Shown piece by piece: positions 5,327 to 56,467 of a stretch of 64,000 nucleotides of DNA. Each line of letters starts with the position of its first letter. Positions within the stretch are counted from its first letter, which is position 1. Origin of the DNA: a virus; IMG/VR virus record IMGVR_UViG_3300029288_006769, positions 250,367 to 314,366 of that record; one strand, 5' to 3'. The notes under the pieces were generated by a model. It was not told the origin of the DNA. It saw only the letters and a list, made by a program, of their open reading frames with translations, and did not search any database. A program made the position numbers and the translations under genes.

Positions 5327-5360
5327 AATTGACCTTTTATATCTCGTTTCTCATGGGTTC

Positions 5361-12694: not shown

Positions 12695-12696
12695 CT

Positions 12697-14187
12697 TTAA
12701 CCCTTTGTCTGTATTGATTCGACTGCAGGTACCAACCTGCCTGCTTGTGTTACTACATTGACATTTGCGATAAAAAGAGTAGGAACTGTAATATTTTCTT
12801 GAACATCTATTTTTTCTATGATGTCTATAAATTCATTTCCTGTCATTTTTTGATACTCTTCCTGTTGAATCTGTAAAGACTTCAACTTTGAAAGAGCAGT
12901 CACAATTTCATCTGTTATTTTTGTCTTAGTTATTTCAGGAAACATTTTACTACCAATAAGATTATTAAAAGTAGTCCCATACCATGGTGCAACAGGATCA
13001 GAGCCTAAAGTCGTTTTTATTATCTTTTTAAGATCTTGTAGAAGTTTCTGTTCGTCTCTTACTTTGATGTAATTACCTAATTTATCAACTACATAATCTA
13101 TCATGTCAGAGTAAACAGAACATTTATCGCAGTATGTGGATGATACATAATAATCTACAGAAATTCTATCGGGCTCATAACTAGCTTGATAATAATAAGA
13201 TACCGTTACAACATCCGTCGTTTTTGGAATCTGATATAATGTAATTTCACCATCTTCACTTGATATTTTAGCTATAGGAATTCTTACACCATTGATATAG
13301 ACAAGTGCTGCATTGTTTAATGTCTCATCTGGTGTTGTACTAAAATTTTGAAATATTGGCAAAAGCGGATAATGCAATGTTTGAAAAATTTTCTCGACAC
13401 CTGTAAATTGTGATGAAACATTTTCATTTTGAACAAAAAATCTATCTGTATTCATTTCTTTATAAAACACAATATCTTGCGATCTTTCAATCATTGCTCT
13501 TTGTGAGTTTTCAATATGCCAACCGCAATCTTGCATGCTATAATAAGCTATGTAAACCTGTTGTCCTGTTTTAGGTGTTTCTTTAATTATTATTCTTGCT
13601 TGAGTCGCATCCAAAAAAACTACTTTGGCCCTATAATAGTATGTTATTGTTACTACATCAGTAATTTCAGGAATTAAAGTAAGAGTAATTTTACCTGTTG
13701 TTGCATCTACACTTGTTATCTGTTCCGTCAACAATTGTAATCCATTGATCTTTACTTGCACATCGCTAGTCTGTACAAAACTGTTAAAATCAAATTCATC
13801 AAATCTTAGAATCGGACGTGCTTGCGTATAAAAAAAGTTATCAACTCCTGTAAATTGTCCAGAAACATCTTCATCTTCTACTTTGATTCTTACTACTACA
13901 TCGTCAAATCTTGTTGCTCTCTGATTGGCTTTAAGTCCATTGAAAATAGGTCCATGTGCTACATAGAAACTTTTATTTGTTCCATTTACTTGACTACTTA
14001 CATTTTCACGTAAAAGTATTTCAGTTTGTTGTTCTTTCTCGAGTTTAAAATCATTTACCCTGACAACAACATTTGAACTCGTTATAGGTACGCCCAAAAT
14101 GACGGTTTTAAGATCATCTTCAACTATATGGTCATCCCAAACAACCTTATTGTCACAAGTACCTGTCAGTCTAAAATCATACGACAT
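12697..14187 (-). CDS. Structural protein (496 aa) built from about 3 copies of the 'N(E)DVSxQFTG...P(I/L)' beta-sandwich module that also occurs in the sheath
   Basis: Repeats 'ENVSSQVNGTNKSFYVAHGPIFNG', 'DEDVSGQFTGVDNFFYTQARPILRF', 'NENVSSQFTGVEKIFQTLHYPLLPIF'. Confidence 0.7.
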   Translation of the reverse strand: MSYDFRLTGTCDNKVVWDDHIVEDDLKTVILGVPITSSNVVVRVNDFKLEKEQQTEILLRENVSSQVNGTNKSFYVAHGPIFNGLKANQRATRFDDVVVRIKVEDEDVSGQFTGVDNFFYTQARPILRFDEFDFNSFVQTSDVQVKINGLQLLTEQITSVDATTGKITLTLIPEITDVVTITYYYRAKVVFLDATQARIIIKETPKTGQQVYIAYYSMQDCGWHIENSQRAMIERSQDIVFYKEMNTDRFFVQNENVSSQFTGVEKIFQTLHYPLLPIFQNFSTTPDETLNNAALVYINGVRIPIAKISSEDGEITLYQIPKTTDVVTVSYYYQASYEPDRISVDYYVSSTYCDKCSVYSDMIDYVVDKLGNYIKVRDEQKLLQDLKKIIKTTLGSDPVAPWYGTTFNNLIGSKMFPEITKTKITDEIVTALSKLKSLQIQQEEYQKMTGNEFIDIIEKIDVQENITVPTLFIANVNVVTQAGRLVPAVESIQTKG

Positions 14188-14830: not shown

Positions 14831-17800
14831 TTAACCAAAAAACAACTTAAGAGCATCACCTAGACCTGGTGTTCCATAAGCAAACATTGCACCAGCCGTA
14901 TAAGCTGTAGAATCACTTTCTGGTCCATTTGTTGCATTTGAAATACTTGTCTTCAAATACTCATTACCACCACGACCATACGGAATTCGAAGGAAATAGA
15001 GGTCAGGTAAAGCAAAATCTTCGGTGATAACAGTTAAAAAGGATTTTATAGTCAATAAAAGATTTTTTAGAGAATCGATTTTTTTCTGCAACAAATCAAT
15101 AAAAGATGTTATTGCTGTGCTCATTTTTTCAGTTCCTGCAAGTAATGAATCCATTAAATTTTGCATGATCTTCATTATTTCTTCGATTTTTGGAAATAGC
15201 CCAAGAGCAGAAAGCCTTATAGATGACCAGTCGGGCCATACCTTGGGTGAATATCGAGGAAATGTTTTTGAATATCCATCGCATCTCTGTTGCATCATTC
15301 CATTTTGACAGGAAATAGGATCCCAAAAATCTTTAAAAGCAATATCTTCTGGTTGGAAATCTTTAATTCCCCCGGAAATCGTCAATTGTCTACGTTGAGA
15401 TTTATCAGGGTTGGTACATTCTCTCCCATTATTGTAATAACAATTTGCATTGTCATAACCTGGGCATAAAGTTTCCCCTGCATCACATTTCGCTATATCA
15501 AAAAAATACCTGCTATACTCAGGTCTGACACATTTGAAATAGTCTTCATTTTCGAAGTCAGGATAAAAATTATACGTCGCTTTAAGTTTTGTTCCTGGAC
15601 GTCTATTAACTTTAATTCTTCCATCTTTATCATTAAGAACCATAACATCTTTACTTGGAACTAGACTTGTTCCTTCATAAATTTCCGCACTTGACGAATC
15701 GATTGGTTTTTTGCTTGTAAGAAATGTCTGATCTGAAAGATCCGTTCCTCCCAAAATGACAGGTTCTTCGAAATATTCTGTTTTTAAATCTTTTTTATAT
15801 TTGTATGTAATTTTCAATGAATCTTCAGATTTAAAATAATAACGTGATTTTATATAAATCATACTAGTAGTTGATTCATATGATTTTACATCTGGATTTT
15901 CTGGGTTGCTTTTAGGCTTATAATCAACACGATATGATGAAGGATTTGCAGTAAATTCGTTTCCATTTCTTGTAATTTTTATTTTTACTGTTCCTGCAAT
16001 AGGAGTGTTACCTATGATGATAAATTCAGGTGCTGTTATTGAAGTGATTCTATGAAATTCTATTGCATCTTTTTCAAATCCACATCTGAAATTTCTACAA
16101 CGAGCAAGTCCCCCTTTGACTTCTAATGACACACTCAAAGGCATGGCAGAAGCTTCATTGCTAAGCAAACCCATAGCCACAATTCCTGTTTCAGACATTG
16201 TTCTTGGGTTTATTTCGGTTTCTACTGGTTTTAATGTTTTGGGATCTACAGTAGAAACAATTTTCTTATCAAAATCTGTTGTCAAAATTTTCTTACTAAT
16301 AATAGATTGATAATTGCTAACTGTGTTTGTATAACCGGCAGCAACTACATAATAATAAGACTTACCATTTTCAACTTGTTTATCCTCATACGCGAAACGT
16401 AAAGGGTCTCCATTTAAAGCTGTTTTTGAAAGTTCTTTTACTGCATAACCTAATTCACCCAACAAAGTTTTTGCATTGTCTTCATCTACTCCAAGGATTG
16501 TACCAATCTGTTTTAATACATTAGTAATTCCTATGAGTTCATAGCTTCTCAAAGGATTTCCATTTTCATCATGACATGGATAAACTCCAGTATCATCTTT
16601 ATAGGTAACAAAATCTCCTCCCTGAGTTTCACTTCTAAAGATAAAATATTCTTTAGGTAATGTTGATGTACTCGGAGTAAATGTAACTCTAACTTGTTTG
16701 TTTCCAGCAAAACAAGAAGTATTAGAGGGTGGCTCAAATGCTACTTTAAAAGGACTCTTAAATAATTTCATGAGTTTTTGAATCGATCTTATAAAAGTAG
16801 CTATGTCATCTGGTCCTATTGTTCCAGAATCAAACATCATAACGTAACCGCCAACCATAGCATTATCTGAAAACTGAGGTCTATTACCATCTCCGGGATC
16901 ATCAAAAGAACCAACAAGTTTTGAAACAAAAGATGAATATCCTCCCTTAACACAATCAAACCAACTTGGATGACTTACGTCAAAAATATTGTATTTCTCC
17001 TTGGGCATATTCCTGAAATATTGAGGATATGCAAAAGGATTAACGCCAAGTTGCCCAGGCATTATATAAATTGCATAAAGTCCAGTAGAAGACAGATCAT
17101 TAATAAAATCATCAATTGTCTTTTTTATCTGATCAAGCAATATCTTCATAGGATCTTGAATATCGATTATGAACATTTTTATGATATTCAAAACTTCAGT
17201 TACAAATTCAAGACCAGATACCAAAGGATCTATTATTGTAGTAAGTGATGTAGCTATTGTATAAATCTCTTTGGGTATCCAAGACTCAGTATTAATTTTA
17301 TCCCAAGATAGAACAGCTGGAATCACTGTTCCCTGTAAAGAAACTTCTACAAGCGGATTTAAAACATCATTAGAAAGAACTCTCAGTGTTCCTGTTAGAG
17401 TTTCAAGATCATGTGGTGCAAATGTTATGTCCAATGAGGTATACCCCTGTATATCTACATGTCCTGATTCCGGTTGTACAGAAAAACTTGGGGGTCTTCC
17501 AGGCCTTAATGGGTTTCTTACAGAAGCTGTAAAAGAAAGAATTTGAGTCCCTGAATTAGAAACAATAGCTGACAATATCTGAGAACCACCTACTGGTACT
17601 TCGCTAAATTGCAATGTTGTAGGTGAAATTGTAATTTTAGGCGAATTAATCCCTGTACCTGTTTCTTGTATTAAAATTACAGGTTTATCTGGATCATTAG
17701 TGTTTAAAGTTATTGTTCCAAGATATTGTTGCAATGCTTCAGGTCTAAACAAGACAGTAAAATAAGAAGATGTATTTGGATTTACAGTAAGACTATCTTG

Positions 17801-19471
17801 CAAAGCTTGAAATATTGTTGAATTTGATGAAATAGAAAGCTCTAAATTTGCTCTTCCCGTATTTCTAACTGTTACATTACCTGTTTTAGAATCTCCTATG
17901 ACAGTCGACCCAAAATCTTGTGCTACTGGAGTATATTCAATAGAAGGATATGCTCCAAAACCAGAAAGTAAAATAGAAATATCAGGTGAATCAGGATCAT
18001 TATTAATAAGATGTACATGACCTGTTTTTAATCCTGTCGTATCAGGAATGAATGTGACCTGTAAATTGCCACTACTCTTAGGTTCTACTTCTAAATTAGT
18101 TTGATCTACAATAAATAGAGAACTCGTCGACGTAATGCTAGAAATAACAAGTTTCCCGAGTCCTAAATTTGTTATAGAAACTGAAAGATTTGAAGGCGTT
18201 GCAACAGCTGTATTGCCAAATTCTAAAGATGTTGGTTGAACAGATATATCAGGATTTACTCCCACGCCTTGAGCAAAAATTTCTACAAGAGGATGTTCCA
18301 AATCATTAGAAACTATTCTAAGTAGACCTTCTTTTCCCCCTATAACCGTTGGCAAAAAAGTAACATCTATAGTTTTAGATGATGTAACTAATATAGGAAA
18401 GATTTCGTTTATAGAGAAAACAGAATCTGTAATTTGTATATCATAAATAACAAGAGTAGTTAATGAGGTCAAATTTTGAATAGTCATTGATAATGTTTTA
18501 TGTTGATCTACAGCTGAATTTCCAAAATCAAGAACCGATGGAGAAACTCTAATTGAAGGAATAACAGCTGTCCCTTGTAAGTCTACATTTTTAATTTGAG
18601 TAACAGGATCATTACTTGTTATAGACAAACATGCTGTGATTATGCCATTAATTATAGGTTGATAAGATATATTTATGCTTAAAAATTCACCTGGTGCAAC
18701 TATACCACCAGCAGGTGACGCTGAAAAAACAGCATTATTGGACGATATTCCAGTAACATTCAAATCGACAACGCCTTCATTGAAGATTTGAAAATTCTTT
18801 GAAAGAACCTGGCCAACCGAAACACTTCCAAAATCAATTAAATTTGTTGATGTTAAAATAATGGGACTAGCGATACCAGAACCAGTAAGATTGATAGTAA
18901 TTATAGGTTGCGTCTCATCATTGCATGAGATAGTAAGTTGTCCTGTTTGTAAAGAAATATCTAACGGCGTAAATGTTGTAAGTATTTGTAAAGCTCTTTC
19001 TTTTGTAAGTTTATATTCAGTTATTGCTTCAGAAAAAACTGGATTTGAAGTTGTTACTGAACTTAATATGAGATTGACATCTACCGGGCTTATGTTAGAT
19101 ACTAACACAGTTTGTTGACCTGAACTATGCAATGCAATATTGCCAAAATTTAAACTTATTTTGTCAACATAAATTCCTGCTGAAATAGAAATGCCATTCA
19201 ATTGGACATTAACATTGCCCTCAGAACTAACTAAAAATAATGTCTCTACAAATGTGTCTATTGTTGTCGGCATAAAGGACACATAAAGCATTACACTTTC
19301 ATTAGGGATTAGCGTTATGCTGCTTGACGAGACACTAAAACTTGGACTTGATGTAGTTATAGATACAACAGTAGAAACCACCCCTGTGTTTGTAACTATT
19401 AAAGAATCTTGTTTTGTGTCATTATATGATAAGACACCAAAGTCAATTATTGACTTGTTCGTTATTATCAT
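14831..19471 (-). CDS. Giant protein (1546 aa): about 700 aa of tandem Ig-like (ASH/PapD-like) repeats, then a large globular C-terminal region
   Basis: Repeated pattern '..LDFG.V.VG......F.I.N.G...L.V..I..S...F......' about 7-8 times. Long uninterrupted ORF. Confidence 0.75.
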   Translation of the reverse strand: MIITNKSIIDFGVLSYNDTKQDSLIVTNTGVVSTVVSITTSSPSFSVSSSSITLIPNESVMLYVSFMPTTIDTFVETLFLVSSEGNVNVQLNGISISAGIYVDKISLNFGNIALHSSGQQTVLVSNISPVDVNLILSSVTTSNPVFSEAITEYKLTKERALQILTTFTPLDISLQTGQLTISCNDETQPIITINLTGSGIASPIILTSTNLIDFGSVSVGQVLSKNFQIFNEGVVDLNVTGISSNNAVFSASPAGGIVAPGEFLSINISYQPIINGIITACLSITSNDPVTQIKNVDLQGTAVIPSIRVSPSVLDFGNSAVDQHKTLSMTIQNLTSLTTLVIYDIQITDSVFSINEIFPILVTSSKTIDVTFLPTVIGGKEGLLRIVSNDLEHPLVEIFAQGVGVNPDISVQPTSLEFGNTAVATPSNLSVSITNLGLGKLVISSITSTSSLFIVDQTNLEVEPKSSGNLQVTFIPDTTGLKTGHVHLINNDPDSPDISILLSGFGAYPSIEYTPVAQDFGSTVIGDSKTGNVTVRNTGRANLELSISSNSTIFQALQDSLTVNPNTSSYFTVLFRPEALQQYLGTITLNTNDPDKPVILIQETGTGINSPKITISPTTLQFSEVPVGGSQILSAIVSNSGTQILSFTASVRNPLRPGRPPSFSVQPESGHVDIQGYTSLDITFAPHDLETLTGTLRVLSNDVLNPLVEVSLQGTVIPAVLSWDKINTESWIPKEIYTIATSLTTIIDPLVSGLEFVTEVLNIIKMFIIDIQDPMKILLDQIKKTIDDFINDLSSTGLYAIYIMPGQLGVNPFAYPQYFRNMPKEKYNIFDVSHPSWFDCVKGGYSSFVSKLVGSFDDPGDGNRPQFSDNAMVGGYVMMFDSGTIGPDDIATFIRSIQKLMKLFKSPFKVAFEPPSNTSCFAGNKQVRVTFTPSTSTLPKEYFIFRSETQGGDFVTYKDDTGVYPCHDENGNPLRSYELIGITNVLKQIGTILGVDEDNAKTLLGELGYAVKELSKTALNGDPLRFAYEDKQVENGKSYYYVVAAGYTNTVSNYQSIISKKILTTDFDKKIVSTVDPKTLKPVETEINPRTMSETGIVAMGLLSNEASAMPLSVSLEVKGGLARCRNFRCGFEKDAIEFHRITSITAPEFIIIGNTPIAGTVKIKITRNGNEFTANPSSYRVDYKPKSNPENPDVKSYESTTSMIYIKSRYYFKSEDSLKITYKYKKDLKTEYFEEPVILGGTDLSDQTFLTSKKPIDSSSAEIYEGTSLVPSKDVMVLNDKDGRIKVNRRPGTKLKATYNFYPDFENEDYFKCVRPEYSRYFFDIAKCDAGETLCPGYDNANCYYNNGRECTNPDKSQRRQLTISGGIKDFQPEDIAFKDFWDPISCQNGMMQQRCDGYSKTFPRYSPKVWPDWSSIRLSALGLFPKIEEIMKIMQNLMDSLLAGTEKMSTAITSFIDLLQKKIDSLKNLLLTIKSFLTVITEDFALPDLYFLRIPYGRGGNEYLKTSISNATNGPESDSTAYTAGAMFAYGTPGLGDALKLFFG

Positions 19472-19690: not shown

Positions 19691-22600
19691 TTACTGAGGT
19701 AAAATAGCATTAATGTCGTTAATAAATTGAATGTTAGATGCAACAATACTTTGATTGTTATCGCTTTGATTTAATTTATCTCCAACTTTGACATATGTCC
19801 CTGTTTTCTTATTCAAACGAATATTCACCTGACTTTTCCTTGCATTATATAAAGCAGGGGTTAGAGCCGCTATTATTTCATTTGCACGAACACTAATTTG
19901 AGGTTTTCTTGCTGTTATTGTACTTTGTCTTGTTGTTAAAATAGAACGTCGAACACTTGTTTTTGTGTTATCAGCTGTAACATAGGTAATAGTTACATTT
20001 CCTTTTGTCGTGTCCCAACCTCGCATAACAGTATAAATTGTTGGAGATGTGATATTGTGATTGTTAATATTTATCAAAGAAGCACTTGCTATTGTCAATA
20101 AATCAACTGAAGGATATGCTTCACTGTTTATCCCTATATCGAAACCTATTTTTGCTGCAAGTGAACTTCCTACCTGTAGTCTTGATGTTGAATCTGTTGC
20201 AGTACTTATAAGTTTTACATAATAGGTATGGGCTACTTGAGCTTCGAATCCCGTATGTGTCTGGGACATTATATTTGTGACTATCTCATTTGCTGTTACA
20301 TTGCAATTGTCAGCAACATTACCAGAACCGGGTGTCTGTCCAGGTTGAGTGCTATCTTTATCAGCTAGACCTAGATCCCCTGCTATTCCATTATTAAGAA
20401 CATGAATATAAGAAGCAGAACCCCCTGTTCCTGAAAACAAAAAATATCTACCTTCATTATAATTCATTGGGTCCCTATAATAAACACATTCAAATAAAGC
20501 AAAACAAGCATGTCCCAAACTTTGAGCTCTAACTTCCTGTTGAATCTTTGCAGCTATATCTTCTGGTGAAAGTTGTGTTCCTAAAGAAATAGTTATTGTT
20601 TGTATATTATTCAAATTGATTTGTAAATTTCCACCATAAACCCTTGTATGTGGTCGTGAATCAGAAACTACACTTGCTCGAACAGCATTGAAAGTATATG
20701 TCTGATTGGGACCACTATTAGCTGAAATTACTAAAGTATCACCATCTGCAATTCTAAACAATTGCGGTATTCTACTAAGTAAGAATGCTGGACTATACCC
20801 TCCATTTGTTATGTAAAATCCATGTGTCAAAATTTCATCAATCAATCCTTTAATCGTATTTGTTGGAGGTACTAACATGTTTATATTCAAATCTAACCTA
20901 TTTCCTCCGCCATGATCTGCCCAATAAATTCTCACCATGAATATTGCATCTGAAATCGTAAGATTTGCTGAAATAAGAGTGTGTCCCGGTTCTGTAACCT
21001 GTCCATCAAATCCAAGTTCACCATCACAAGAACCCCATTTTACATTACCTACACCCGTATAAAAAACTTCACCTGTATAGACGATAGCATAGAATCCCAT
21101 AATACTTGCAATAGTTGCAGGACTGTTCAACAACAGATCTAAATATACACCATCCGACGATATCGTAAACTTACTAGAAGCATAGGTCACTGAATACGTG
21201 TTGTTTCCAACAGCGTTCATTTGAGTTTGAATTTCTTGAGCTAATATAATTGGATTATAAAAACCAGCAGTGATATATGCTGACAATGTTGTAGTTATAT
21301 TTTCTCTAAAATCTATTCTATCATTCTGTCCTGCAACAATTTTAATTGTAGCATCTGTCACATTTACAGTAGAACCTGCATCAAATGAGCCCGATATTAT
21401 CCTTAATTGATTTGTAAAAGTTTGCCAAGCAGTTGTTTCGTTAAAAGTACAAACAGCTTCAGTATAGCCGCCACCACCAAGTGCTCTTAATCCATTTTGG
21501 ATACTAGCAGCCATTGCAGGTCCCAATGTAACAGTTGAACTTGTTATAACTCCTATGGGATCTCTTAATAAATCACTATCTATATCTACTTTCAATTTAT
21601 TATTTTGATCTGCACCAAAATTTGTTGTCAAACTAAAACCAATTATAGTTCTACAAGTACCTCCAGTAATTTCTACAGAACTTGTTGTCCCTGTTGCCGA
21701 TAAAGTCGTAATTCTTACTCTATTAGAATCATTTGAAGCAGAAATTCCAGAAATTTCAGCATTCAAAACTGCAACAACTTCATCAACTGTAACATTATTA
21801 ATATCTAACACATCAGAACCACCATAAACTGGGGCATCTCCATCAAGAGCTACTGTTCTTAAAAAATCATAGGAACCTTCATAAACATCTATTCTAGAAC
21901 TATTTCCAAGCAGTGTTGATGTAATTCTAACTCTAGACCCAGGATTAGTAATTGTAAAATCAGAACTATCAAAATTGGGATCATTAGAAATTTGGGTTAC
22001 CATTTCAGCAATTAATGTTGAAATGGTATATCTGTTTTGAGGAATAATAATTAGATCGGCACTTAACTGTCCATCAATTGCTATTCTAAAAACATTGTTG
22101 ACATTATCGACAACAGGAAATATTGTATCGTTTTCAGAATAATAAACCATATTGCCAGTGTTATCCACAATATTAAAACCGATAGTATAAGCTATCGATG
22201 AAGATGCATTTGTACCTGTTGCCCATAATAGAGAAAAAATACCTGTACCACCAGCTCCATCTGAAATTATTGTAAATCTGTTTGGAACAGAAATGTTATA
22301 ATTCACAGAATAATTTGATGCTCCTACAGCATTAAGTCTTGTTTGAATTTGAGTCGCTAAAGTAGCACCTGTATAAGCACCTGCAGGAATTATAGTTGTA
22401 AGCTCAACACTTGGGCTTTCTCTAAAATCTATCCCATCATTTACGCTTGATCTTATAATAAATTGGTTACTTACTGCAATTCTGCTTTCAGTATACCCTG
22501 GCAATGCATTAAAAGTTGCTGTCTGATTAGATCCACCATCTATTCGCATTGACAATGTATCTCCAGCAGAAAAATCAAAAGGTCCGTAATTTGAACCAAT

Positions 22601-25321
22601 AATTGTAGCTGAAGTGTCTGCTGGAACAGTTACAAGATAACCATCAGGATCTGCTAATGAATATGAATAACCTTGAGTGCGTGGTTCAGCTGTAATAGAA
22701 AAAGCTGGTAATGGTTCTGGGCCAAAAGAAACATTATTTGACATTAGACCCTCAGGACTAAAACGCCCCGGAATATGTGTTGGAACTGTTTCATATCTCA
22801 CTAAAGGTGCAGGTTTATTATAAACTCTTAAATCATTTATCACAGGTAATGAAATATGTAGAGGTTCTGTCCCGCCATTGCTAAAATCAGTTCCTGCAAC
22901 ATACGTATTGAACATAGGTGTTATATTAAGCACACTGCCGTGTTGTGCTAGACAGTCTATTAGACTATCTCTATTAGGCGTTAGATTGTCGTATGCAGTT
23001 GTTTTTTGAATAATTACAGCATCTGACTCGCTTATATGATTTGCATAGGCTCCTCTATGATATCGAATTGCATTGTACTCTTGGTTCACCTTTGCAAGTT
23101 CTAGAGCTGCTAAATATTCCCAAGATTCTAATAATGTTTCGTTATCATATAGATGATTTTCAACTTGATCTAATAAATCCGGTTCGTCTTCAACATATTC
23201 TTCTTCTTTTAATAAAGCTGATTGTTCATCAACAGTTCTATCTATTACTCTTGGTGTCCCATCAAATTGATTACAAAATGTCGGGTAAAAGTAACTTAAC
23301 ATTTGAAATGAAACTTGAACATCTGATGTGTGTGATCCATTTAATGATCTATCTGTAATTAAAAATCCAATATAATTTGCTATGCTTGTTGTTGCATGTA
23401 CTCCTGTTGCCCAAAACAAACCGAAAGTACCACTATCCCTTGTAATAATAAATCTTTTTCTTGAAGAATATTCGCATGTATATCTATCTACAGCAGCCAC
23501 AGCAACATTAAGTGCATCTTGTATAGCTTCAGCTAAGCTAGATTCGCTATCATAGACACCATGTGTAATAAAAGCTGTTATTTCAGTATCTGTGCTTTCA
23601 AAAAAGTCAATTTTGTCGTTGGTGTCATCTATTGTTATTTTCCCGTTAGGATAAAGCCTTGGCAATCCTCTTGAACCATCGTCATAAATTTTTGTTGTTG
23701 TTGCATCAAAATCCTGAAAATTGGATTGAATATTTACTCCATCTAGCCTTTGAAATTCAATTTCAGGATAAGTATAAAGAATTGAATGACTCAAAGTGTC
23801 AGGATTTACAACAGAAGAAACTGTAATATTAGGAACTGTTGCAAGTCTATCATGCAATTTTTGTAACGTTTCAAAAAACTCTTCATGGCCAATTTCTTCT
23901 TGGGGTGTCGTAAAACCAATCAAACTTCGAGCATCTCTATCAGGATCACTTGCTGGAAGAACATGAACTGAAGAACTAGTACCAAAAGTGCCACTATAGA
24001 TAATAAATGTGTCACTATCAGTGAAATAGTGAACAGCTGCATTTTTAAAACCACCAGTGCCCTTAATTCTTAATTGTGCTTCTATTGATTTGGCAACATC
24101 TTTTCCATTGTCAAGTCCTGAACAAAACAATGGTCCAAGCCTGTCATATCCTATATATCCAAGTGGTACAGATTGACTACCTGTCCAATCAAAACCAATA
24201 TCATCATTATTGTATCCACGTTCTACATCAGAAAAACAAAGCCTGAAATCTGCTATTTTTATTTCGACAGCTTCACTATCAATTTCGACATTCAACAAAT
24301 TATTTTGATATTTTCCTTGAATCATATATTGATCCGTAAAACCAAGCATAGATCTTAAATCTTGACCCGAAGCATTTCTAACTTCCACGCTAGATGTTGG
24401 ACCACCATGAGCAGCAATAATAGTAAAAGTTTGTATAGTAATATTAAATGCACAAGTAGCAGCTTCTAAAGCAGGATCAGCTTGTTGTAATAAAAGCTGT
24501 ATTGTTGATGCAAGAGCCGAGCCCTCTACTTGCACTATATTGTTGTAAGAAGCTAGCAATTCACTGTCTACAGGTAATGGCGTAATGAGATGTACTACAC
24601 CTGTCGTATAATCATCAATTGTATAGTCTGTTCCTCTTACCAATGGAATCTCTAGTTCACCAGATAGAACTTTTAAAACATCTGACAATGGCGTAATAGG
24701 AATTTGTGTCAAATTTACGTCTGTTTCTGTTCCACTTGCTAATGGTACGACAGATTCATCCGTCTGTATAATATTCGTGATGTCTGACACATCGACTTCA
24801 ACATCCAATGTACCATCAAAACGAACAGCTAAATTCCTGTGATTAATATCAATAGTAAAGATAGAAGAACTATGTTTTATTGACGTTGTCGATCCAAAAC
24901 GATCTCTTGACCAAATATCAAAATTTATTCCACAAGGTTGTGATCTAGAATAACCTCTCACAGGAAATAAAGGTACATTTACAATTTCAATGCTATTCTC
25001 TACAATTCTTAATCTTCCATTATTAATATAAAGTCTTGCTGGCAATCCAGAAGTATTTGAAATAGTAAAACCAGCTTCTTGCAATGGTTGTATTATAGAA
25101 GTTCCATTTAAACGTCGTAACTCTTCTTCAAATTCAAATATGTCAATATGAAAAGGATCAAGTTGTTTTTTAAAAGGTGTATCAATTAAAAGAAATCTTG
25201 CTATTTCAGTAGTTATAGTTACAGAAGATTCATTAATTTGTTGATTTTGAGCTTCTGTGTTTTCTCTTGTGTCTTTTAGATAATTAATATCATCCTGAGT
25301 CAAAGGCAAATTGAACGCCAT
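19691..25321 (-). CDS. Giant virion protein (1876 aa) containing about 8-10 divergent copies of a roughly 100-aa module ending in '...S(I/L)A.(Y/I)(I/M)GF'
   Basis: For example 'AQEIQTQMNAVGNNTYSVTYASSKFTISSDG...ATIASIMGFY', 'ATQIQTRLNAVGASNYSVNYNISVPNRFTIISDG...SSIAYTIGF', 'AEAIQDALNVAVAAVDRYTCEYSS..FIITRDSG...TSIANYIGF'. AAGGGAGAG SD upstream. Confidence 0.8.
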   Translation of the reverse strand: MAFNLPLTQDDINYLKDTRENTEAQNQQINESSVTITTEIARFLLIDTPFKKQLDPFHIDIFEFEEELRRLNGTSIIQPLQEAGFTISNTSGLPARLYINNGRLRIVENSIEIVNVPLFPVRGYSRSQPCGINFDIWSRDRFGSTTSIKHSSSIFTIDINHRNLAVRFDGTLDVEVDVSDITNIIQTDESVVPLASGTETDVNLTQIPITPLSDVLKVLSGELEIPLVRGTDYTIDDYTTGVVHLITPLPVDSELLASYNNIVQVEGSALASTIQLLLQQADPALEAATCAFNITIQTFTIIAAHGGPTSSVEVRNASGQDLRSMLGFTDQYMIQGKYQNNLLNVEIDSEAVEIKIADFRLCFSDVERGYNNDDIGFDWTGSQSVPLGYIGYDRLGPLFCSGLDNGKDVAKSIEAQLRIKGTGGFKNAAVHYFTDSDTFIIYSGTFGTSSSVHVLPASDPDRDARSLIGFTTPQEEIGHEEFFETLQKLHDRLATVPNITVSSVVNPDTLSHSILYTYPEIEFQRLDGVNIQSNFQDFDATTTKIYDDGSRGLPRLYPNGKITIDDTNDKIDFFESTDTEITAFITHGVYDSESSLAEAIQDALNVAVAAVDRYTCEYSSRKRFIITRDSGTFGLFWATGVHATTSIANYIGFLITDRSLNGSHTSDVQVSFQMLSYFYPTFCNQFDGTPRVIDRTVDEQSALLKEEEYVEDEPDLLDQVENHLYDNETLLESWEYLAALELAKVNQEYNAIRYHRGAYANHISESDAVIIQKTTAYDNLTPNRDSLIDCLAQHGSVLNITPMFNTYVAGTDFSNGGTEPLHISLPVINDLRVYNKPAPLVRYETVPTHIPGRFSPEGLMSNNVSFGPEPLPAFSITAEPRTQGYSYSLADPDGYLVTVPADTSATIIGSNYGPFDFSAGDTLSMRIDGGSNQTATFNALPGYTESRIAVSNQFIIRSSVNDGIDFRESPSVELTTIIPAGAYTGATLATQIQTRLNAVGASNYSVNYNISVPNRFTIISDGAGGTGIFSLLWATGTNASSSIAYTIGFNIVDNTGNMVYYSENDTIFPVVDNVNNVFRIAIDGQLSADLIIIPQNRYTISTLIAEMVTQISNDPNFDSSDFTITNPGSRVRITSTLLGNSSRIDVYEGSYDFLRTVALDGDAPVYGGSDVLDINNVTVDEVVAVLNAEISGISASNDSNRVRITTLSATGTTSSVEITGGTCRTIIGFSLTTNFGADQNNKLKVDIDSDLLRDPIGVITSSTVTLGPAMAASIQNGLRALGGGGYTEAVCTFNETTAWQTFTNQLRIISGSFDAGSTVNVTDATIKIVAGQNDRIDFRENITTTLSAYITAGFYNPIILAQEIQTQMNAVGNNTYSVTYASSKFTISSDGVYLDLLLNSPATIASIMGFYAIVYTGEVFYTGVGNVKWGSCDGELGFDGQVTEPGHTLISANLTISDAIFMVRIYWADHGGGNRLDLNINMLVPPTNTIKGLIDEILTHGFYITNGGYSPAFLLSRIPQLFRIADGDTLVISANSGPNQTYTFNAVRASVVSDSRPHTRVYGGNLQINLNNIQTITISLGTQLSPEDIAAKIQQEVRAQSLGHACFALFECVYYRDPMNYNEGRYFLFSGTGGSASYIHVLNNGIAGDLGLADKDSTQPGQTPGSGNVADNCNVTANEIVTNIMSQTHTGFEAQVAHTYYVKLISTATDSTSRLQVGSSLAAKIGFDIGINSEAYPSVDLLTIASASLININNHNITSPTIYTVMRGWDTTKGNVTITYVTADNTKTSVRRSILTTRQSTITARKPQISVRANEIIAALTPALYNARKSQVNIRLNKKTGTYVKVGDKLNQSDNNQSIVASNIQFINDINAILPQ

Positions 25322-25333
25322 TAAAACTCTCCC

Positions 25334-25924
25334 TTATGTAAGTTTTCCCATATCAATACCAGTCATTGGATTTGGAGGATACCCAGCACCAACAATAGTA
25401 GTCATTACAATTCCTGATGACAGAATTGTATTACAAATTCCATTACCAATTGCATTTGCTAATTGCGGCGCCTTTGAACCAGTAAAACCAACTGCAGTAA
25501 ACATTCCCATTATGCTAGATCCCATTGCTGGTCCTGCAATACCAACTATTTTTCCAGTACCTGTTCCAACTGCCATACCTACGCTTGATGAATTAACAAT
25601 TCCCATTGCAATAAAAGAGGCAAAAGCATTCCCAATTGCATTAGATAATTGTAATGCTTTTGAACCAGTGAAACCAACTGCAGTCATCATCCCCATAATA
25701 TTTGTTGCAGTTACCGGACCAACAATACCTTGCACAAAACCAGTACCTACACCTGCACCTGTACCAACCCCTACACTTACGCCTTGATAAAAAGCTGATG
25801 CAAGTAAATAATTAGCGACGCCATTACCAATTGCATTTGCTAATTGTGGTAATTTAGAGCCAGTAAATCCTACAGCAGAGAACTGTGTCATAAGTAATCC
25901 AGTGAATACGGGCCCTGCTAACAT
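25334..25924 (-). CDS. Glycine-zipper-rich protein (196 aa) made of three tandem ~64-aa repeats ('TAVGFTGSKAPQLANAIGNG...'); predicted membrane-active or structural
   Basis: Three near-identical repeats are also visible at DNA level (period ~190 bp at ~25440, ~25630 and ~25820). Minus orientation matches the operon, and the gene is translationally coupled to the upstream gene. The antisense plus ORF 25311..25787 is a Gly-codon mirror artefact. Confidence 0.55.
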   Translation of the reverse strand: MLAGPVFTGLLMTQFSAVGFTGSKLPQLANAIGNGVANYLLASAFYQGVSVGVGTGAGVGTGFVQGIVGPVTATNIMGMMTAVGFTGSKALQLSNAIGNAFASFIAMGIVNSSSVGMAVGTGTGKIVGIAGPAMGSSIMGMFTAVGFTGSKAPQLANAIGNGICNTILSSGIVMTTIVGAGYPPNPMTGIDMGKLT

Positions 25925-27174
25925 AATGTTTCTTCACGATAAGGAATATTATGTTTTGCTTTATAATGACTCCCAAAACCTTGATAGTGTATGTATTCAC
26001 CACATCTAATACATTTTTTATGTTTTCTTGACTTTGATTTATCTAAATTAAGAGCTTTTATGTAACTTTCAATACAAAGAACAGGTACTTTAAAAAATTC
26101 TGATAATTTATCATTTGGCTCACCATTATAAAACTTTTTTATAAAAATCTCTTTTTGATTCTCTAATTTTTGTATTATTAAACTACCTCTTCTTTTTCTA
26201 TTTCTTTCTTTTTTTCTTAAAGATGTTTTCTCTTGTTCTTCTTGCATTGTTCTAAGATTGTTAGAATCTATCAAGATTTGTTTGACTATATCTCTTGGTA
26301 TATGTAATTTTTTTGCAATAGATGAGTATGCTTGATTATCTTTGTAAAGTTTGCAAACAATATACTTGAACTTATTTTTTTGCTCTTCAATAAGTTTTAC
26401 ATTTTTCTTTCTTTTTGATTTTAACCCTAATCTCAAAAAAATCTTAGATGCTAAACCTTTAGGTAAATCATATTTATGCTTTATATCAATCTGATTAAGA
26501 CTTAGAATTTTTACGTCATCTTCAATATTTTTTCCTAACTTGTTAATATAATAATCGAGTCTATATTTTAAATATTCTTTAGACCCGACTTTAGGTATTT
26601 TATATATTCCATACAATATATTTACTAAGTGTTTGCTGACATTTAATTCGTTAGCTATTTTTTCGATGCTCTTTGATTCTCCTATATTTTCTTTAATGAA
26701 TTGTTCTTTAGAAATTTTATTTTTTAACTCACTGATATAATATTTTTTGTTTTTTAAATCGTATCTAAACTCTTCAATATTAATTTTTAATTGTCGATCA
26801 ATGTCCCAAACTGACATGTCTTCAAGAATATTTTTCGTATAGATATTAAGTTTTAAATTCGGATATGTTTCTTTTATAATTGCAAGTTTCTCTTTTGCTT
26901 CCTCTGGAAAATAACCTTTGATTTCTATAAACTCATCAAATTCTGGTAAATAAAAATCTGGATGATAATATGTTATTCTTCCACTTTTTGTAACATATTT
27001 AAAATTTTCAACACCAGTATGACATAAAAATTTTATATTTTTACTTTCTAACCATAACCCAAATTTAAACTCAAACGAACCCTGAAAATGATATCCTTTA
27101 TAAAAATACCAATGAGTATTAGAATAGTTTGCAATTTTATTTTGTGAAAAACTATGGTGCTTTGTGTTTTGCAT
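25918..27174 (-). CDS. Free-standing homing-endonuclease-like protein (418 aa): N-terminal PD-(D/E)XK-like nuclease motif, NUMOD-like HTH repeats, C-terminal zinc ribbon
   Basis: 'YHPDFYLPEFDEFIEIKG' (PD...E.K). Three HTH-like segments ('IEKIANELNVSKHLVNILYG', 'YSSIAKKLHIPRDIVKQIL', 'LSEFFKVPVLCIESYIKAL'). 'CIRCGEYIHYQGFGSHYKAKH'. Paralogous nuclease core to 62906..63886. Confidence 0.6.
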   Translation of the reverse strand: MQNTKHHSFSQNKIANYSNTHWYFYKGYHFQGSFEFKFGLWLESKNIKFLCHTGVENFKYVTKSGRITYYHPDFYLPEFDEFIEIKGYFPEEAKEKLAIIKETYPNLKLNIYTKNILEDMSVWDIDRQLKINIEEFRYDLKNKKYYISELKNKISKEQFIKENIGESKSIEKIANELNVSKHLVNILYGIYKIPKVGSKEYLKYRLDYYINKLGKNIEDDVKILSLNQIDIKHKYDLPKGLASKIFLRLGLKSKRKKNVKLIEEQKNKFKYIVCKLYKDNQAYSSIAKKLHIPRDIVKQILIDSNNLRTMQEEQEKTSLRKKERNRKRRGSLIIQKLENQKEIFIKKFYNGEPNDKLSEFFKVPVLCIESYIKALNLDKSKSRKHKKCIRCGEYIHYQGFGSHYKAKHNIPYREETLC

Positions 27175-27177
27175 AAT

Positions 27178-29319
27178 TTATATAGATGCTTTTACTGTTT
27201 TACTCCCAATCAATGGGACTCCGCAAATAAAATCAAGATGAGAAATTCCAGAACCCGGACTTCCTGTGATTACTCCGCCCTTTGTAGGCATTTGCCCGAT
27301 TTCTACTTGTGGTGCTACAAGTTTCAATTTTGTGCCACCTTTAACTGTCACTGTTGTCATACCATTTATATCAACTGTTTGAGATGTAGAGTCAACTTTG
27401 ACTTTTCCTGCTTTTGTCTTTATCGTAATATTGCCAGTTGTCACATCAACAATGTTATCCCCAGCCTTTATAGTTATTTTCTTGTTTCCTTTCGTAAGAT
27501 TTTCTAAAGAATCTCCAGCTTTAATTGTTTCTTTTTTACTGCCAGTCGTAATATTAGTTACATGATCTCCGATTTTTATTTTATCTTCAAAACCTACATC
27601 TTTTTTAGTTATTATTTCGCGTTTAATATCGCCAAGTGTTACTTTTTCTTCAATATTACCATTCAACAAAGAAGTCTTCTTGTTGCCATTCATAAAACTT
27701 TCAACTCTAGAACCAGTAGTCAAATCATATTGGTCTGTAGTTTCATTTGGTAGAGCTGGAGTAAAAACACCCGGTGATCTTTCTAAATTACCGGTAATTT
27801 TCTGAACATTATTGTAACCTATTTGCTCTTGTTTATCTTTAACTACGACTTTCTTATATGAACCGCCATACGTATTATTCTTGTCATTGACATAACTTTC
27901 TTCTCTTGTGCCAAGTGACTCAACTTTGAATTTACCATGGACAGTCAATGTATAATTGCCAGAAACTTCCATTCCATAGTTACCATCAACATATCCTATC
28001 TGATCGCCCTTTGTTTTTAATAAATAAGCGACACCATCTTTTGCAGGAGCCATAACCTCTATATGTATACCATTATTTGACATTACATAAGCGCTCTTAC
28101 CAGTTATATCCGAGCCAAGTGTTGCTCTTATACCCCCTTTTGTGTCCAGAAACAAAGATCTGTTATCAATATTTTCAGCACCAATTACAAATTTTACAGA
28201 ACCTTTGAATCCTGCTTCCCAACTTCTACCAGGGCCCAAAGGATGACGACCGGAAGAAGCTGGAAAATAAGTAAAAAGATGTCCTTCTTTATCTATATCA
28301 ATTTGAGCAGTAGACATATGTCTAAAATGTAAAGTCGAAGCTAAAGTCGAATATTCTTCAGGCATGCACTCTATATAATCTAAAGCAAATTCTGTCGCAA
28401 CTGGTGTTCCAAAAATTTGAGAGCGTAGAACTTTAGCATATTTTGAAGAATCTGTTTTGTCATTTCCTACCAAAGTACCCATGACAAAGGAAATATATGG
28501 AGAAAGGGGATCAACATCATAACCAGCATTTACTTCAGTAGCTCTCATTATACCGTCAGCCATTTCATAGAGCTCTGTTCTATGCTCTGTGAATGCTTTG
28601 CCACCAAGATGTATTGGGTTGTTTGAATTCGTTACAAATTGGATTTTTTGACCATTGGGAAGTGTTGTAGGTTGAAACGAAAAATCACTTTCTCCAGGCT
28701 CTCTTGCTATCATCCCATTCCAAGTTCGTGATGCCTGTGTATTGGTGTATATTTGATTTGAAGAAAGGCGAATTGATTTATCAGCTGATCGAATTTCTAT
28801 TTCATTAAGTTTTGAATCCGACAAATAAACATCTTCATCAAGATATAATTCTGCGCCTTGTGTAGATTCAAACTGGATCTCTCCAGGATAAATTTTACGT
28901 CTTTTTCCACGTACAACATTATACCCAATTTTTTCTCTAATCGTCTTGATTTCTTTAAGTATTTGTGGTGTTTTATCGTTTCTTAAAAGACGATATTCTA
29001 ACAATTGTTTTAAATTTCCATCTACAAAACCAAGAACTACAGGATCTTCCCAAGTATGCGATTGTCTAGCCCAGCCGCACAAAACCAAACTACCTTCTTC
29101 TGGCATAGCTCTAATCGACGATCTTGCTGAAGCAAAAGTAGTGGGTAATCTGACTAATTGATTATTTCCGGGTCCTTCTTCTAACCAGATTATATCAATA
29201 TAACCTGTTTCATAATCAACTCTAGAAACATAGCCAAGACGAACAAATTTTGTTCTATCGACAAGTTTACCTCTATAAGGGCTCTCACCCTTACCTATTG
29301 GCTTTAGAGCATCATTCAT
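27178..29319 (-). CDS. Baseplate central spike/hub protein (gp5/gpV/VgrG-like, 713 aa) with a C-terminal beta-helix repeat needle
   Basis: N-terminal OB-like region ('GKLVDRTKFVRLGYVSRVDYETGYIDIIWLEEG'). C-terminal repeats 'GDSLENLTKGNKKITIKAGDNIVDVTTGNITIKTKAGKVKVDS...VKGGTKLKLVAP'. Confidence 0.7.
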   Translation of the reverse strand: MNDALKPIGKGESPYRGKLVDRTKFVRLGYVSRVDYETGYIDIIWLEEGPGNNQLVRLPTTFASARSSIRAMPEEGSLVLCGWARQSHTWEDPVVLGFVDGNLKQLLEYRLLRNDKTPQILKEIKTIREKIGYNVVRGKRRKIYPGEIQFESTQGAELYLDEDVYLSDSKLNEIEIRSADKSIRLSSNQIYTNTQASRTWNGMIAREPGESDFSFQPTTLPNGQKIQFVTNSNNPIHLGGKAFTEHRTELYEMADGIMRATEVNAGYDVDPLSPYISFVMGTLVGNDKTDSSKYAKVLRSQIFGTPVATEFALDYIECMPEEYSTLASTLHFRHMSTAQIDIDKEGHLFTYFPASSGRHPLGPGRSWEAGFKGSVKFVIGAENIDNRSLFLDTKGGIRATLGSDITGKSAYVMSNNGIHIEVMAPAKDGVAYLLKTKGDQIGYVDGNYGMEVSGNYTLTVHGKFKVESLGTREESYVNDKNNTYGGSYKKVVVKDKQEQIGYNNVQKITGNLERSPGVFTPALPNETTDQYDLTTGSRVESFMNGNKKTSLLNGNIEEKVTLGDIKREIITKKDVGFEDKIKIGDHVTNITTGSKKETIKAGDSLENLTKGNKKITIKAGDNIVDVTTGNITIKTKAGKVKVDSTSQTVDINGMTTVTVKGGTKLKLVAPQVEIGQMPTKGGVITGSPGSGISHLDFICGVPLIGSKTVKASI

Positions 29320-29322
29320 TTA

Positions 29323-31449
29323 TTATTCTTTCTCTATCGTAAAACCAAGATTTTCAAGACTGACATTAGGTTTCATGTTTGCTGGCAATTCAGGAATACT
29401 TTTACTTGTGCCATAAACAATCATTCTCCCATTTTCTGAATCTAATGTGTACATAACATTGTTTGGATCGACTTCAAGTTGCATTCGTTGTACATTCATT
29501 TCTAATGCTTTTGCTGCATTATCTTTTGTCGGGTCTGTTTTTTCTGGGGTTTTTATAGTACCTATAGGGTCATATTGCAAACCATACCCATAGGTAATGT
29601 ATGGTTCAGCTCCTACCTGTCCTATAACTTCATACTGGTCGTAATCTGTTATCTGAAATTCACCGTCTTTATTAGGTGTCACAGATGTATTAGCATAGGT
29701 TTGCCATGTTCCAAATTTTTCTTTTGATTTTAAATCTGTAGTAAAAATAGGTTCGACAATAGTCACATGTTCTTTTGCTCTTGGTGTACAAATAGAAGGC
29801 ATAGAAACTTGTTTTACGAAATTATTTGTATCATTAGGCTCTGCTATAGAATCCCCAACAATAACAACTTGTTCATCTTTTATCTCGCCTACATTTCTAA
29901 AAATTGAGTTCTTATTTTGTTTTTTTGTTCTTTCAGCTACAAGAGTTAATGTTGTCGTAAAAGTTCCACCAAATGTGAATCTATTTTCGATTCCTTTTAT
30001 ATAATAAAAAGCATCTCTTGAAGGTATGAAAACAGGGTACCCTAGCCGTAATTCTGGGCGTCCCATTATTGTTACAGAACCTTGTCTGATAAGCGCATTT
30101 TGTCTAGCTAATTCAGCTCTTCCCCAAAACACACATTGTTCTGCAGAATGTAACCAGTTCATGCTTCTCTGCACCATTCTTTCTCCAAATTGTAGAGAAA
30201 GATACGGATCTCTAGCTGTTCCATTAGTGATTTCTTGATATCCCGAAACATTCGCCAGAGTACCTGTAACATCAACACGTGTTATTACTTCAGATTCGCT
30301 TTGTATAAAATTCCAATTTATAATGTCCAAATCATGTATAATTGAGTTCATATTTTTTCTAACATCAAGATTATAAAATGGGAGCTTGAAAACAAGTTCG
30401 CCATTTACATCCATAAAAAATTCATAATGTATAGTCTCCTTCAATTCATTTGCTATTTCTAATTGACTTTTCTTTTCACTCTTTGCAATGGAAGGAGCTT
30501 GAGGAAAGCTTTGATAGACAATAGTATTAGATCCGAACATTCCTTGTAATTTCTCATTTTTTGTTTTGTCATCATAAGTCAATAGTTTAAAAACATCAAT
30601 ATCCATACGTTTTGTTTCAGGCCGAACTTGCAAAGCATAAATTTTTAAATGAGCACCAACTTCATTTAAACGTTTTGACCAATAGTACATCATTTCTTTT
30701 GTTGCAGCACTATCTCTTGCTTCACCCGAAACTTGAACTGTCTGATCTTTAGAATACAAATAATCACTAATAGGAGCCATTTGCAACATTGATGCTGTTG
30801 ACAAAGCATTAAGAATCTCGGGTATGGTTTGTCCAGAAAAAAGATTACTAAATATAGTTAGATATCTACCATTTGCTTTTACAGTTTTTCCTTCAAGAAA
30901 TTTTCTAATATCTTCATCGTTCATACCCATCTGACCTAATTGTGCTTTCAGATCTGTTTGTGTGCCCATAATTGACGGGTTGATTGATGCTAATGTTATT
31001 TGCCACCATCGCAAAATATCAGCACAAGAAACTGAAATTGTATGTACACCATCACCATAATTTTCTGTCAAAGCTGTCACAACACCCCAGAAAGCTCTAT
31101 AATAAGGAAATTTTTTCTCTCCATTGACTTCTTTCAAAAATCTGCCTCTGAAATAAATCTCTACTTCAGACATAATTTTCAAATTTGAATATTTTGAAAC
31201 ACCAGAAGTCAATGTTCTATATCTTCCGCCTCTATGTTCAGGATAAGAAATCGTAAAACTTGCTGTTCCTGGGACAGAATCTGTGCTCAAACTCGTATTT
31301 ATTTCAGTAATGTCTTGACGAATATCGAATTTCCCGCCCGAAGGATCTGTCAATAAATTAGAACCATTTATAAAAACTAAAGCATCAGGAGCAAGTTGTA
31401 CAGTTTCAGGTTGCCTGTAAAAATCATTAAGAGAGCTTTGTGAACTCAT
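29323..31449 (-). CDS. Baseplate hub-like protein (708 aa)
   Basis: Sits between the tube-initiator-like paralogs and the spike. No diagnostic motif recognised. Confidence 0.45.
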   Translation of the reverse strand: MSSQSSLNDFYRQPETVQLAPDALVFINGSNLLTDPSGGKFDIRQDITEINTSLSTDSVPGTASFTISYPEHRGGRYRTLTSGVSKYSNLKIMSEVEIYFRGRFLKEVNGEKKFPYYRAFWGVVTALTENYGDGVHTISVSCADILRWWQITLASINPSIMGTQTDLKAQLGQMGMNDEDIRKFLEGKTVKANGRYLTIFSNLFSGQTIPEILNALSTASMLQMAPISDYLYSKDQTVQVSGEARDSAATKEMMYYWSKRLNEVGAHLKIYALQVRPETKRMDIDVFKLLTYDDKTKNEKLQGMFGSNTIVYQSFPQAPSIAKSEKKSQLEIANELKETIHYEFFMDVNGELVFKLPFYNLDVRKNMNSIIHDLDIINWNFIQSESEVITRVDVTGTLANVSGYQEITNGTARDPYLSLQFGERMVQRSMNWLHSAEQCVFWGRAELARQNALIRQGSVTIMGRPELRLGYPVFIPSRDAFYYIKGIENRFTFGGTFTTTLTLVAERTKKQNKNSIFRNVGEIKDEQVVIVGDSIAEPNDTNNFVKQVSMPSICTPRAKEHVTIVEPIFTTDLKSKEKFGTWQTYANTSVTPNKDGEFQITDYDQYEVIGQVGAEPYITYGYGLQYDPIGTIKTPEKTDPTKDNAAKALEMNVQRMQLEVDPNNVMYTLDSENGRMIVYGTSKSIPELPANMKPNVSLENLGFTIEKE

Positions 31450-54838: not shown

Positions 54839-54845
54839 GATGTGT

Positions 54846-55907: not shown

Positions 55908-56467
55908 TCTTTTTTCCTACAAGTTATTGCAACATTTTCAAAATCTAAAAAATCTTTTTTTAAATTATTTTCTAAACAAGTTGCATCTATATCCTTGTCG
56001 GTTATTTCAATCCAATTCCAGATTTTTCCTATCATGACATTTTCAAAATACTCCATATCCTTTGCATAATCATGTGCCAAAATATAATCGCCTGGTTTTA
56101 AAAATTTTGAAAAAATGCTAAATTCTTTAATTTTGTTTCCACCATCACAAAAAACAACACTTGTTCCTTCATTCTTTATCAAGTTTTGGATTACATCAAT
56201 ACTCTCAAAAACATCAGCAATTCTATGATCAATATTTAAACGTACAAACAGTTTATTGTTTTCAGTTAGTTTTTTAATGTCAAATGTAACAAACTGACAA
56301 TCATAAGCAATTGCATACATTTGAAACAATATAGAAAGGCCTCCATAATATGTTCCAATTTCTATGATAGTCTTTGGCTTTACAGCAAGTAAAAATTCAT
56401 TTAGAACTTTTGGAATATTTTCATTCTGTGCAAGATTAAAGCCTAAAAATTCGAAACTCACATTCAT
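55904..56467 (-). CDS. SAM-dependent O-methyltransferase (TylF/MycF/CmcI-like class I MTase, 187 aa)
   Basis: 'TIIEIGTYYGGLSILF' (motif I) ... 'VVFCDGGNKIKEF'. Confidence 0.6.
   Translation of the reverse strand: MNVSFEFLGFNLAQNENIPKVLNEFLLAVKPKTIIEIGTYYGGLSILFQMYAIAYDCQFVTFDIKKLTENNKLFVRLNIDHRIADVFESIDVIQNLIKNEGTSVVFCDGGNKIKEFSIFSKFLKPGDYILAHDYAKDMEYFENVMIGKIWNWIEITDKDIDATCLENNLKKDFLDFENVAITCRKKE

Follow-up and report, generated by a model that had tools for sequence, protein, structure and literature searches.

A triple-repeat protein from uncultured huge phages: a predicted pseudo-threefold ring and a possible cap or adaptor on the central tail spike

The stretch of viral DNA analysed here (the window; 64,000 nt, positions 250,367 to 314,366 of the IMG/VR record IMGVR_UViG_3300029288_006769) encodes a 196-residue protein made of three internal repeats, which quite possibly, though we would put it at somewhat less than an even chance, is a cap or adaptor of non-PAAR type that sits, as a monomer, where the threefold axis of the tail spike runs. 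On this reading the virion contains it as a soluble protein, and its three repeats, which are ancient, close as a pseudo-threefold ring, each repeat consisting of a helical hairpin and a beta-hairpin that pack via small residues; one copy would be placed at the symmetry axis of the contractile tail's central spike, a trimer, with every repeat in contact with a different one of its three identical chains, and the protein would there cap or sharpen the membrane-attacking end, as the tips of the PAAR/T4 gp5.4 kind do, though unrelated to them. Presence in the virion, a stoichiometry of one, the end of the spike that is bound and the position at the tip are points that we infer.

The large open reading frames of the window are all located on the minus strand. 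In the order of transcription, a tape-measure-sized gene (its counterpart at a homologous locus, L001, has a weak PhageMin_Tail match) is followed by two genes for proteins of about 180 aa and by genes for a 708-aa, a 713-aa, a 418-aa endonuclease-like, the 196-aa and an 1876-aa protein. The features referred to below are:

29323..31449, minus strand: conserved gene for a 708-aa protein, directly upstream of the spike gene; a hub candidate by position only, from synteny
27178..29319, minus strand: 713-aa central-spike candidate, gp5/VgrG-like beta-helix; conserved upstream partner of the triple-repeat gene
25918..27174, minus strand: 418-aa endonuclease-like ORF between the spike and the triple-repeat genes
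25334..25924, minus strand: triple-repeat protein gene, ATG-initiated, 196 aa, stop codon at 25334-25336
19691..25321, minus strand: giant, repeat-rich protein of 1876 aa, starting 12 nt past the triple-repeat gene; conserved downstream partner
12697-14187, minus strand: protein with a sheath-initiator (gp25-like) domain, by domain match
9503-12694, minus strand: Baseplate_J protein, by family match
25311..25787, plus strand: antisense shadow ORF of 158 aa, rich in Pro, Ile and Val; not a gene

The gp25-like and Baseplate_J proteins (9503..14187) identify the region as a contractile-tail baseplate module; the 708-aa protein has no family match.

A previous reading of this DNA, made from the letters alone (the sequence-only reading), had described an ORF of 196 aa with three internal units, situated between a giant gene and an endonuclease gene; the ORF is present on the minus strand at exactly 25334..25924 and is flanked by the 1876-aa and the 418-aa ORFs. 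The start codon, an ATG at 25924, lies within the end of the upstream endonuclease ORF, whose last codons and stop it overlaps (ATGTTAG). The gene is annotated at NCBI as PHF86_04070 in a shorter version of 185 aa, but homologues keep the N-terminus MPLxGP, which favours the start at 25924. The possibility, also raised in that reading, that the plus-strand ORF 25311..25787 is the actual product is ruled out because its open stretch shrinks in the homologous loci, to 131, 99 and 49-81 codons; the sense frame stays open along its whole length at each locus, and the minus-strand gene thus stands. The protein is composed of, among others, 37 G, 23 A, 18 V, 18 T and 15 S; R, E, H and W are absent and only six residues (5 K, 1 D) are charged. 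The units, with the secondary structure predicted for them by AlphaFold2, are:

25733..25924, minus strand: unit 1 (aa 1-64), helix 4-17, loop GFTGSK, helix 25-43, beta-hairpin 45-53/57-65
25547..25732, minus strand: unit 2 (aa 65-126), helix 69-82, loop GFTGSK, helix 90-106, beta-hairpin 109-115/119-127
25337..25546, minus strand: unit 3 (aa 127-196), helix 131-145, loop GFTGSK, helix 152-170, beta-hairpin 172-179/186-195

The hairpin of unit 3 carries a Pro-rich turn (YPPNP). A peptide quoted earlier as an example of the units does not exist as written; it joins residues 66-90 of unit 2 to residues 151-162 of unit 3.

The units had been called near-identical, at about 64 aa each. Their number is correct, but in pairwise comparison whole units share only 45-52% of their residues and 55-62% of their nucleotides; the best DNA repeat is 103 nt long (76% and 64% identical) and Tandem Repeats Finder does not report the array. 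Near-identity is confined to a core of about 20 aa (AVGFTGSKxxQLxNAIGN), the first part of which, AVGFTGSK, is the same in all three units and anchors each of them (residues 17, 82, 144). Codons for the same amino acid within this core are identical between units in 8/16, 10/19 and 13/17 cases. As the units have diverged in DNA and their synonymous codons differ, there is no sign of recent amplification or of recent gene conversion; the recent amplification previously deduced from DNA-level identity is thereby refuted, and a recent duplication was rejected on the same two grounds. The three-unit architecture is kept in relatives down to about 27% identity, and the triplication is ancient and tightly constrained.

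A word-indexed search identified 68 homologues of 169-209 aa (all but one of at least 185 aa), with identities down to 26%, which are known only from large viral metagenome contigs of up to 466 kb. With a profile, at least 578 clusters, counted at 50% identity, were found at E<=1e-3, of which 374 remain at E<=1e-10; among the matches listed, nearly all span residues 1-196, that is, end to end. Length is 180-209 aa in 210 of the 214 members retrieved, and one member reaches 271 aa because about 75 residues are inserted behind its first hairpin; charged residues make up 7% on average in these 214 sequences, and Cys, His and Trp less than 1% each. Repeat copy number, for which a comparison among related phages had been suggested, is thus three throughout at constant size, and a number fixed at three is more in keeping with a closed architecture than with an open solenoid.

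Searches of PHROGs gave no match to the 196-aa protein and a sequence search of the PDB returned noise only, and no family. The only Pfam signal is to the RP1-2 repeat of spider tubuliform silk (PF12042; 23.4 bits, E 6e-5), which stays below the gathering threshold of 25 and is seen in 8 of the 66 family members scanned; both are Ala/Ser/Gly-rich helical sequences, and the match was judged to be compositional. When three family members were compared by tblastn with 50,697 phage records nothing was found at E=1, a search in which the low-complexity filter may mask such queries, and megablast with 11 kb around the gene gave no match. For 13 close sequences no relatives were found in 185,579 species-representative genomes and three in IMG/VR, all in viral contigs, so that close relatives were not found as prophages. 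A search of the literature found no paper on the triple-repeat family, which has neither a curated name nor a solved relative.

Modelling of the 196-aa protein by AlphaFold2 on a 66-sequence alignment gave a confident fold (pLDDT 94.7, pTM 0.88; all five models at 91-95) in which the order helix, GFTGSK loop, helix, beta-hairpin is run through three times (H-H-E-E thrice). Foldseek found no structural relative of this model in the PDB, PAAR included; PAAR entries such as 4jiv are presumably contained in the structure libraries searched. One unnamed 207-aa protein was retrieved from BFVD. Mean-field DCA on 210 family sequences (Meff 197) supplied contacts within the helical hairpins of single units (G4-G33, T8-N30, G131-G160) and others between units: among the top 100 couplings 26 join units 1 and 3, 22 units 2 and 3, and 19 units 1 and 2. 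Two cyclic sets recur in equivalent registers, one comprising A31-F142 (helix 2 of unit 1 to helix 1 of unit 3), A96-F15 (unit 2 to unit 1) and A158-M80 (unit 3 to unit 2), the other, again helix 2 to helix 1, L40-M134, F104-F7 and T166-T72; the beta-strands of the three units are coupled as well (S50-S114, the top pair overall, S50-D191 and S114-I177). Units 1 and 3 are therefore coupled like adjacent units, which indicates a closed pseudo-threefold ring, and ring closure also explains the fixed copy number. By both the AlphaFold2 model and DCA, whose alignments overlap and which are thus not fully independent, the protein is predicted to close in this way. As for an elongated as opposed to a compact shape, the helix-strand couplings that bear on it are too noisy at scores below about 1.1. 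At the axis-facing positions 50/114/177/191 the residues D-H-I-G are found in 77 sequences, S-S-I-D in 31 (the window protein among them) and H-I-D-G in 8; a single buried Asp thus shifts among these positions from member to member, and in the commonest form His114 is its partner.

The repeats also change in parallel. Units within one protein are 33-39% identical, and different units taken from distant proteins 22-26%; even the corresponding unit of distant proteins, at 23-31%, stays below the value within a protein. This excess likeness is concentrated in the loop between the helices, where the triplet at positions 24/89/151 is KKK in 33 sequences, QQQ in 7, DDD in 6 and NNN in 6, and the neighbouring positions 23/88/150 read TTT, SSS or PPP. 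Three like charges are disfavoured in mutual contact, which suggests that each repeat faces an equivalent site on a homotrimer. Recent gene conversion is not the cause, since synonymous codons differ between units; older gene conversion, or contacts from loop to loop around the axis, could be. The switching between KKK, DDD, QQQ and NNN offers a compact natural case of symmetry-driven coevolution which can be tested against the sequence of the partner.

The trimeric partner proposed here is the 713-aa protein, taken to be the central spike from a set of matches that are individually weak (E about 1e-3). The top 14 matches of its family profile in the PDB are all to the T4 gp5 beta-helix (E 1.2e-3 to 0.045); Gp5_C and Gp5_trimer_C match weakly in five family members each and DUF2345 in six, phrog_694 matches too, and the orthologue at locus L007 has a match to the beta-helical trimerisation family PF21930 (30 bits, threshold 27). 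As a monomer, residues 360-713 were modelled by AlphaFold2 as an extended chain. As to an N-terminal OB-fold (Phage_base_V), the model has beta-strands at residues 27-99, and the family profile matches only 1 of 43 members, at E 0.074. No HxH was found near the C-terminus of this protein and its relatives; there, about 40 residues beyond the beta-helix form a conserved tail, GGV(V/I)TG.P..SHLD.I.G.PL.GS.TVKA, with a near-invariant His694. The isolated tails do not match PAAR, nor does any ORF of the window that was scanned.

Nine loci have usable flanks (the window, L001, L003, L005, L006, L007, L010, L011 and L012). In eight of them a homologous spike gene (680-749 aa) lies upstream of the triple-repeat gene with at most one variable gene inserted; it overlaps the triple-repeat gene or is 7-40 nt away in L003, L007, L011 and L012, and one gene intervenes in the window, L001, L005 and L010. 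The inserted gene is endonuclease-like in the window and L005; the insertion occurs in L010 as well and is missing in L003, L007, L011 and L012, and since L011 (70% identity) and L012 (63%) are among these, it behaves as a mobile insertion. The homing endonuclease named as a neighbour in the sequence-only reading is therefore plausible as a mobile endonuclease, present or absent at one site among close relatives; the 418-aa ORF matches phrog_945 (E 1.3e-8) and, below threshold, Phage_endo_I. The placement of the triple-repeat gene in a tail/baseplate module is supported as well; the gene adjoins that of the central spike, which makes a role in envelope penetration plausible. The cultured Tunturiibacter phage Tunturi_5 and LR745208 have distant relatives of the spike and no triple-repeat homologue within 9 kb.

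PAAR proteins (PF05488; T4 gp5.4 and the T6SS PAAR proteins) are about half the size of the triple-repeat protein, and in their structures a conserved His/Cys metal (Zn) site is located near the apex. The resemblance is that the gene for a small, separate protein comes directly behind the spike gene of a contractile system, that three internal pseudo-repeats close around an axis, which suits one monomer on a homotrimer, and that the associated spike is without HxH apex. The differences are that no PAAR HMM matches the window protein (E<=1) or the 66 family members (E<=0.1), that the family has no invariant His or Cys column that could form such a site, and that the predicted fold is alpha/beta (six helices, three hairpins), not an all-beta cone. 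[quoted passage not shown] In RB43 the proposed tip is an unrelated, non-PAAR protein from the same locus, orf205w, a proposal based on position and cryo-EM density (PMC12407873). Like the triple-repeat gene, orf205w follows a gp5-like spike gene; it is set apart by its description, with about 690 aa, a mostly alpha-helical make-up and no mention of a three-repeat architecture (PMC12407873). A tip is thus suggested by a stand-alone closed pseudo-trimer that is encoded after the spike, by a spike without HxH and by the lack of PAAR in the scanned ORFs of the window. The main objection is that the spike's own tail with His694 may form the apex, leaving no room for a further tip.

A position on the axis need not be the distal one. 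The triple-repeat protein could instead be an adaptor or assembly partner of the giant protein (1343-2164 aa in relatives), or some other on-axis component internal to the hub; it might, for example, hold the giant repeat protein on the spike or hub, much as Rhs-type cargo is attached through PAAR proteins. We consider this rather unlikely, though well worth keeping in view: pseudo-threefold closure suits any position on the axis, and the giant gene lies 0-12 nt downstream in seven loci (the window, L003, L005, L006, L010, L011 and L012), with stop and start overlapping in L003 and L006. At L006 no spike gene is found within 8 kb upstream and the giant gene still overlaps the stop of the triple-repeat gene, so that the giant protein could be the primary partner. 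Against this, the adjacency is broken in L001 and L007, the only loci where the giant gene is not directly downstream, and the giant proteins diverge much faster than the spikes; those of the window and L003 lack significant similarity (E 0.09), whereas the spike proteins of these genomes align over their full length (E 2e-63 and 1e-50). The two roles may also be combined, in that a pseudo-trimer on the spike could serve as anchor for the giant downstream protein, or be a membrane-wetting tip.

The sequence-only reading had favoured membrane-inserting helices, as pore, channel or holin-like effector, from units rich in GxxxG zipper motifs. The motifs are mildly enriched (11 observed, 6.7 +/- 2.1 in shuffles, p ~0.04), but they do not make zipper helices, as 10 of the 11 lie within predicted beta-hairpins, where the conserved pattern is GxGxGxG on one face of a strand. 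No transmembrane-grade segment was detected: the highest Kyte-Doolittle mean over 19 residues is 1.47 and no segment reaches the 1.6 level, and the summed free energy of insertion is at least +3 kcal/mol in all segments of 17-21 residues. The predicted helices, 14-19 residues long, combine conserved stripes of hydrophobic or small residues (L28, A31, I32, G35, L40) with variable polar ones (positions 14, 18, 27, 30, 34, 38), which are occupied by charged residues in relatives; the helices of the family are amphipathic in the way of soluble proteins, and Pfam Gly-zipper or holin families are not matched by any of the 66 members scanned. The evidence says that the 196-aa protein is not a membrane protein, at least not constitutively. 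Glycine-zipper proteins such as Tse4 and VacA are membrane-active. An ejection protein on or in the spike complex could refold after penetration, its small-xxx-small helices forming a pore or translocation channel, for which the glycine-zipper T6SS effectors, with Tde1, provide a precedent (PMC10240207); like the N-terminus of Tde1 (PMC10240207) the triple-repeat protein has many small residues, spaced as small-xxx-small, and very little charge, and delivery by the spike may apply to it too. What sets it apart, and makes such a pore improbable, is the lack of a family match and of a helix of transmembrane length, the predominance of GxxxG in strands, and a confidently predicted, compact and closed soluble domain of fixed three-unit size, which points to a structural role. 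That the gene encodes a holin-like lysis protein or another non-virion membrane protein and resides in the tail module by chance is very improbable indeed; small size and hydrophobic composition are all that speak for it, and the gene is syntenic with hub, spike and baseplate genes across distant relatives, with no endolysin or spanin gene nearby. Neither the pore nor the holin reading has much in its favour.

The findings on structure and evolution are solid, and it is the function, a cap or adaptor on the spike axis, that we infer from them. Somewhat more doubtful than that function itself, yet a serious prospect, is that the family represents a previously unrecognised class of non-PAAR spike tips or axis caps in a large clade of uncultured huge phages, in the form of a nearly charge-free alpha/beta pseudo-trimer. 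Spike tips have a bearing on the hosts that can be penetrated and also, in T6SS and eCIS, on the cargo that can be attached. If the triple-repeat protein is a tip, it would constitute a second, unrelated way in which a single pseudo-trimeric chain caps a spike trimer, would enlarge the set of parts for phage tails and engineered nanosyringes, and would give a function to at least 578 clusters that now are without Pfam, PHROG or PDB relative. The family is widespread among genomes of 200-470 kb, which are without a cultured representative; if its product is not a tip, huge phages would still have in it a widespread structural protein whose fold is novel.

The spike gene (encoding the 713-aa gp5/VgrG-like central-spike candidate) and the triple-repeat gene are separated by an endonuclease-like open reading frame, and the same site is occupied in two related viral loci:

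25918..27174, minus strand, window: endonuclease-like ORF, inserted precisely between these two genes
6695..7999, L005: endonuclease-like ORF at the same site
6559..8007, L010: endonuclease-like ORF at the same site

The deduced protein is Phage_endo_I-like at its N-terminus and rich in Cys and His at its C-terminus, and it also has helix-turn-helix-like repeats; the last codons of its reading frame overlap the start codon of the triple-repeat gene. While some relatives carry the insertion, the close relatives L011 and L012 do not; this distribution is as would be expected of a free-standing homing endonuclease.

The NCBI entry for the triple-repeat ORF, PHF86_04070, comprises 185 aa and covers 94% of it; its annotated start, we infer, is an internal methionine. 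Conservation of the family N-terminus (MPLxGP) shows that the ATG at 25924 is the true start of the gene.

Upstream of the insertion, the spike ends in a conserved element:

27178..27300, minus strand: C-terminal tail past the beta-helix, GGV(V/I)TG.P..SHLD.I.G.PL.GS.TVKA

All spikes associated with the triple-repeat family retain this tail, in which His694 is near-invariant, and AF2 confidence over it is below 50. This element may either dock the triple-repeat protein or form the apex of the spike itself.

Downstream, giant and repeat-rich proteins are encoded:

19691..25321, minus strand: 1876-aa protein
14831..19471, minus strand: 1546-aa protein with many HYDIN/ASH/Cep192-type Ig-like domains (E 1e-57)
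1..5349, minus strand: further giant gene, an open frame of at least 1783 codons that continues beyond the window start and is absent from the ORF tool's output

Judged by eye from the translation, the 1876-aa protein seems to contain about ten internal repeats of roughly 100–150 aa, each closing with an IGF, MGF or LGF motif. It has no family match in Pfam or PHROG; homologs are encoded in L001 (43% identity) and L005 (30%), and the positional equivalents in more distant phages have diverged beyond recognition. In L001 and L005, a gene similar to that for the 1546-aa protein is conserved after the giant gene.

Two further features were noted:

51017..57852, minus strand: glycosylation cluster adjoining virion genes
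48687..49763, minus strand: 358-aa ORF strongly matching Pfam Volactin (PF25216; E 2.9e-74, 250.9 bits)

In the glycosylation cluster, one gene encodes a protein of 1273 aa that combines several GT2 and GT1 domains with TPR repeats; the other products are two methyltransferases, a GT1 protein, and a GT-D-like protein. The Volactin-matching ORF is located within the huge-phage structural region, and the contig carrying it is labeled “Candidatus Nanoarchaeia archaeon” at NCBI. Volactin is an actin homolog described in archaea; the match poses the question whether a cytoskeletal protein is encoded by the virus, and which organism is its true host.
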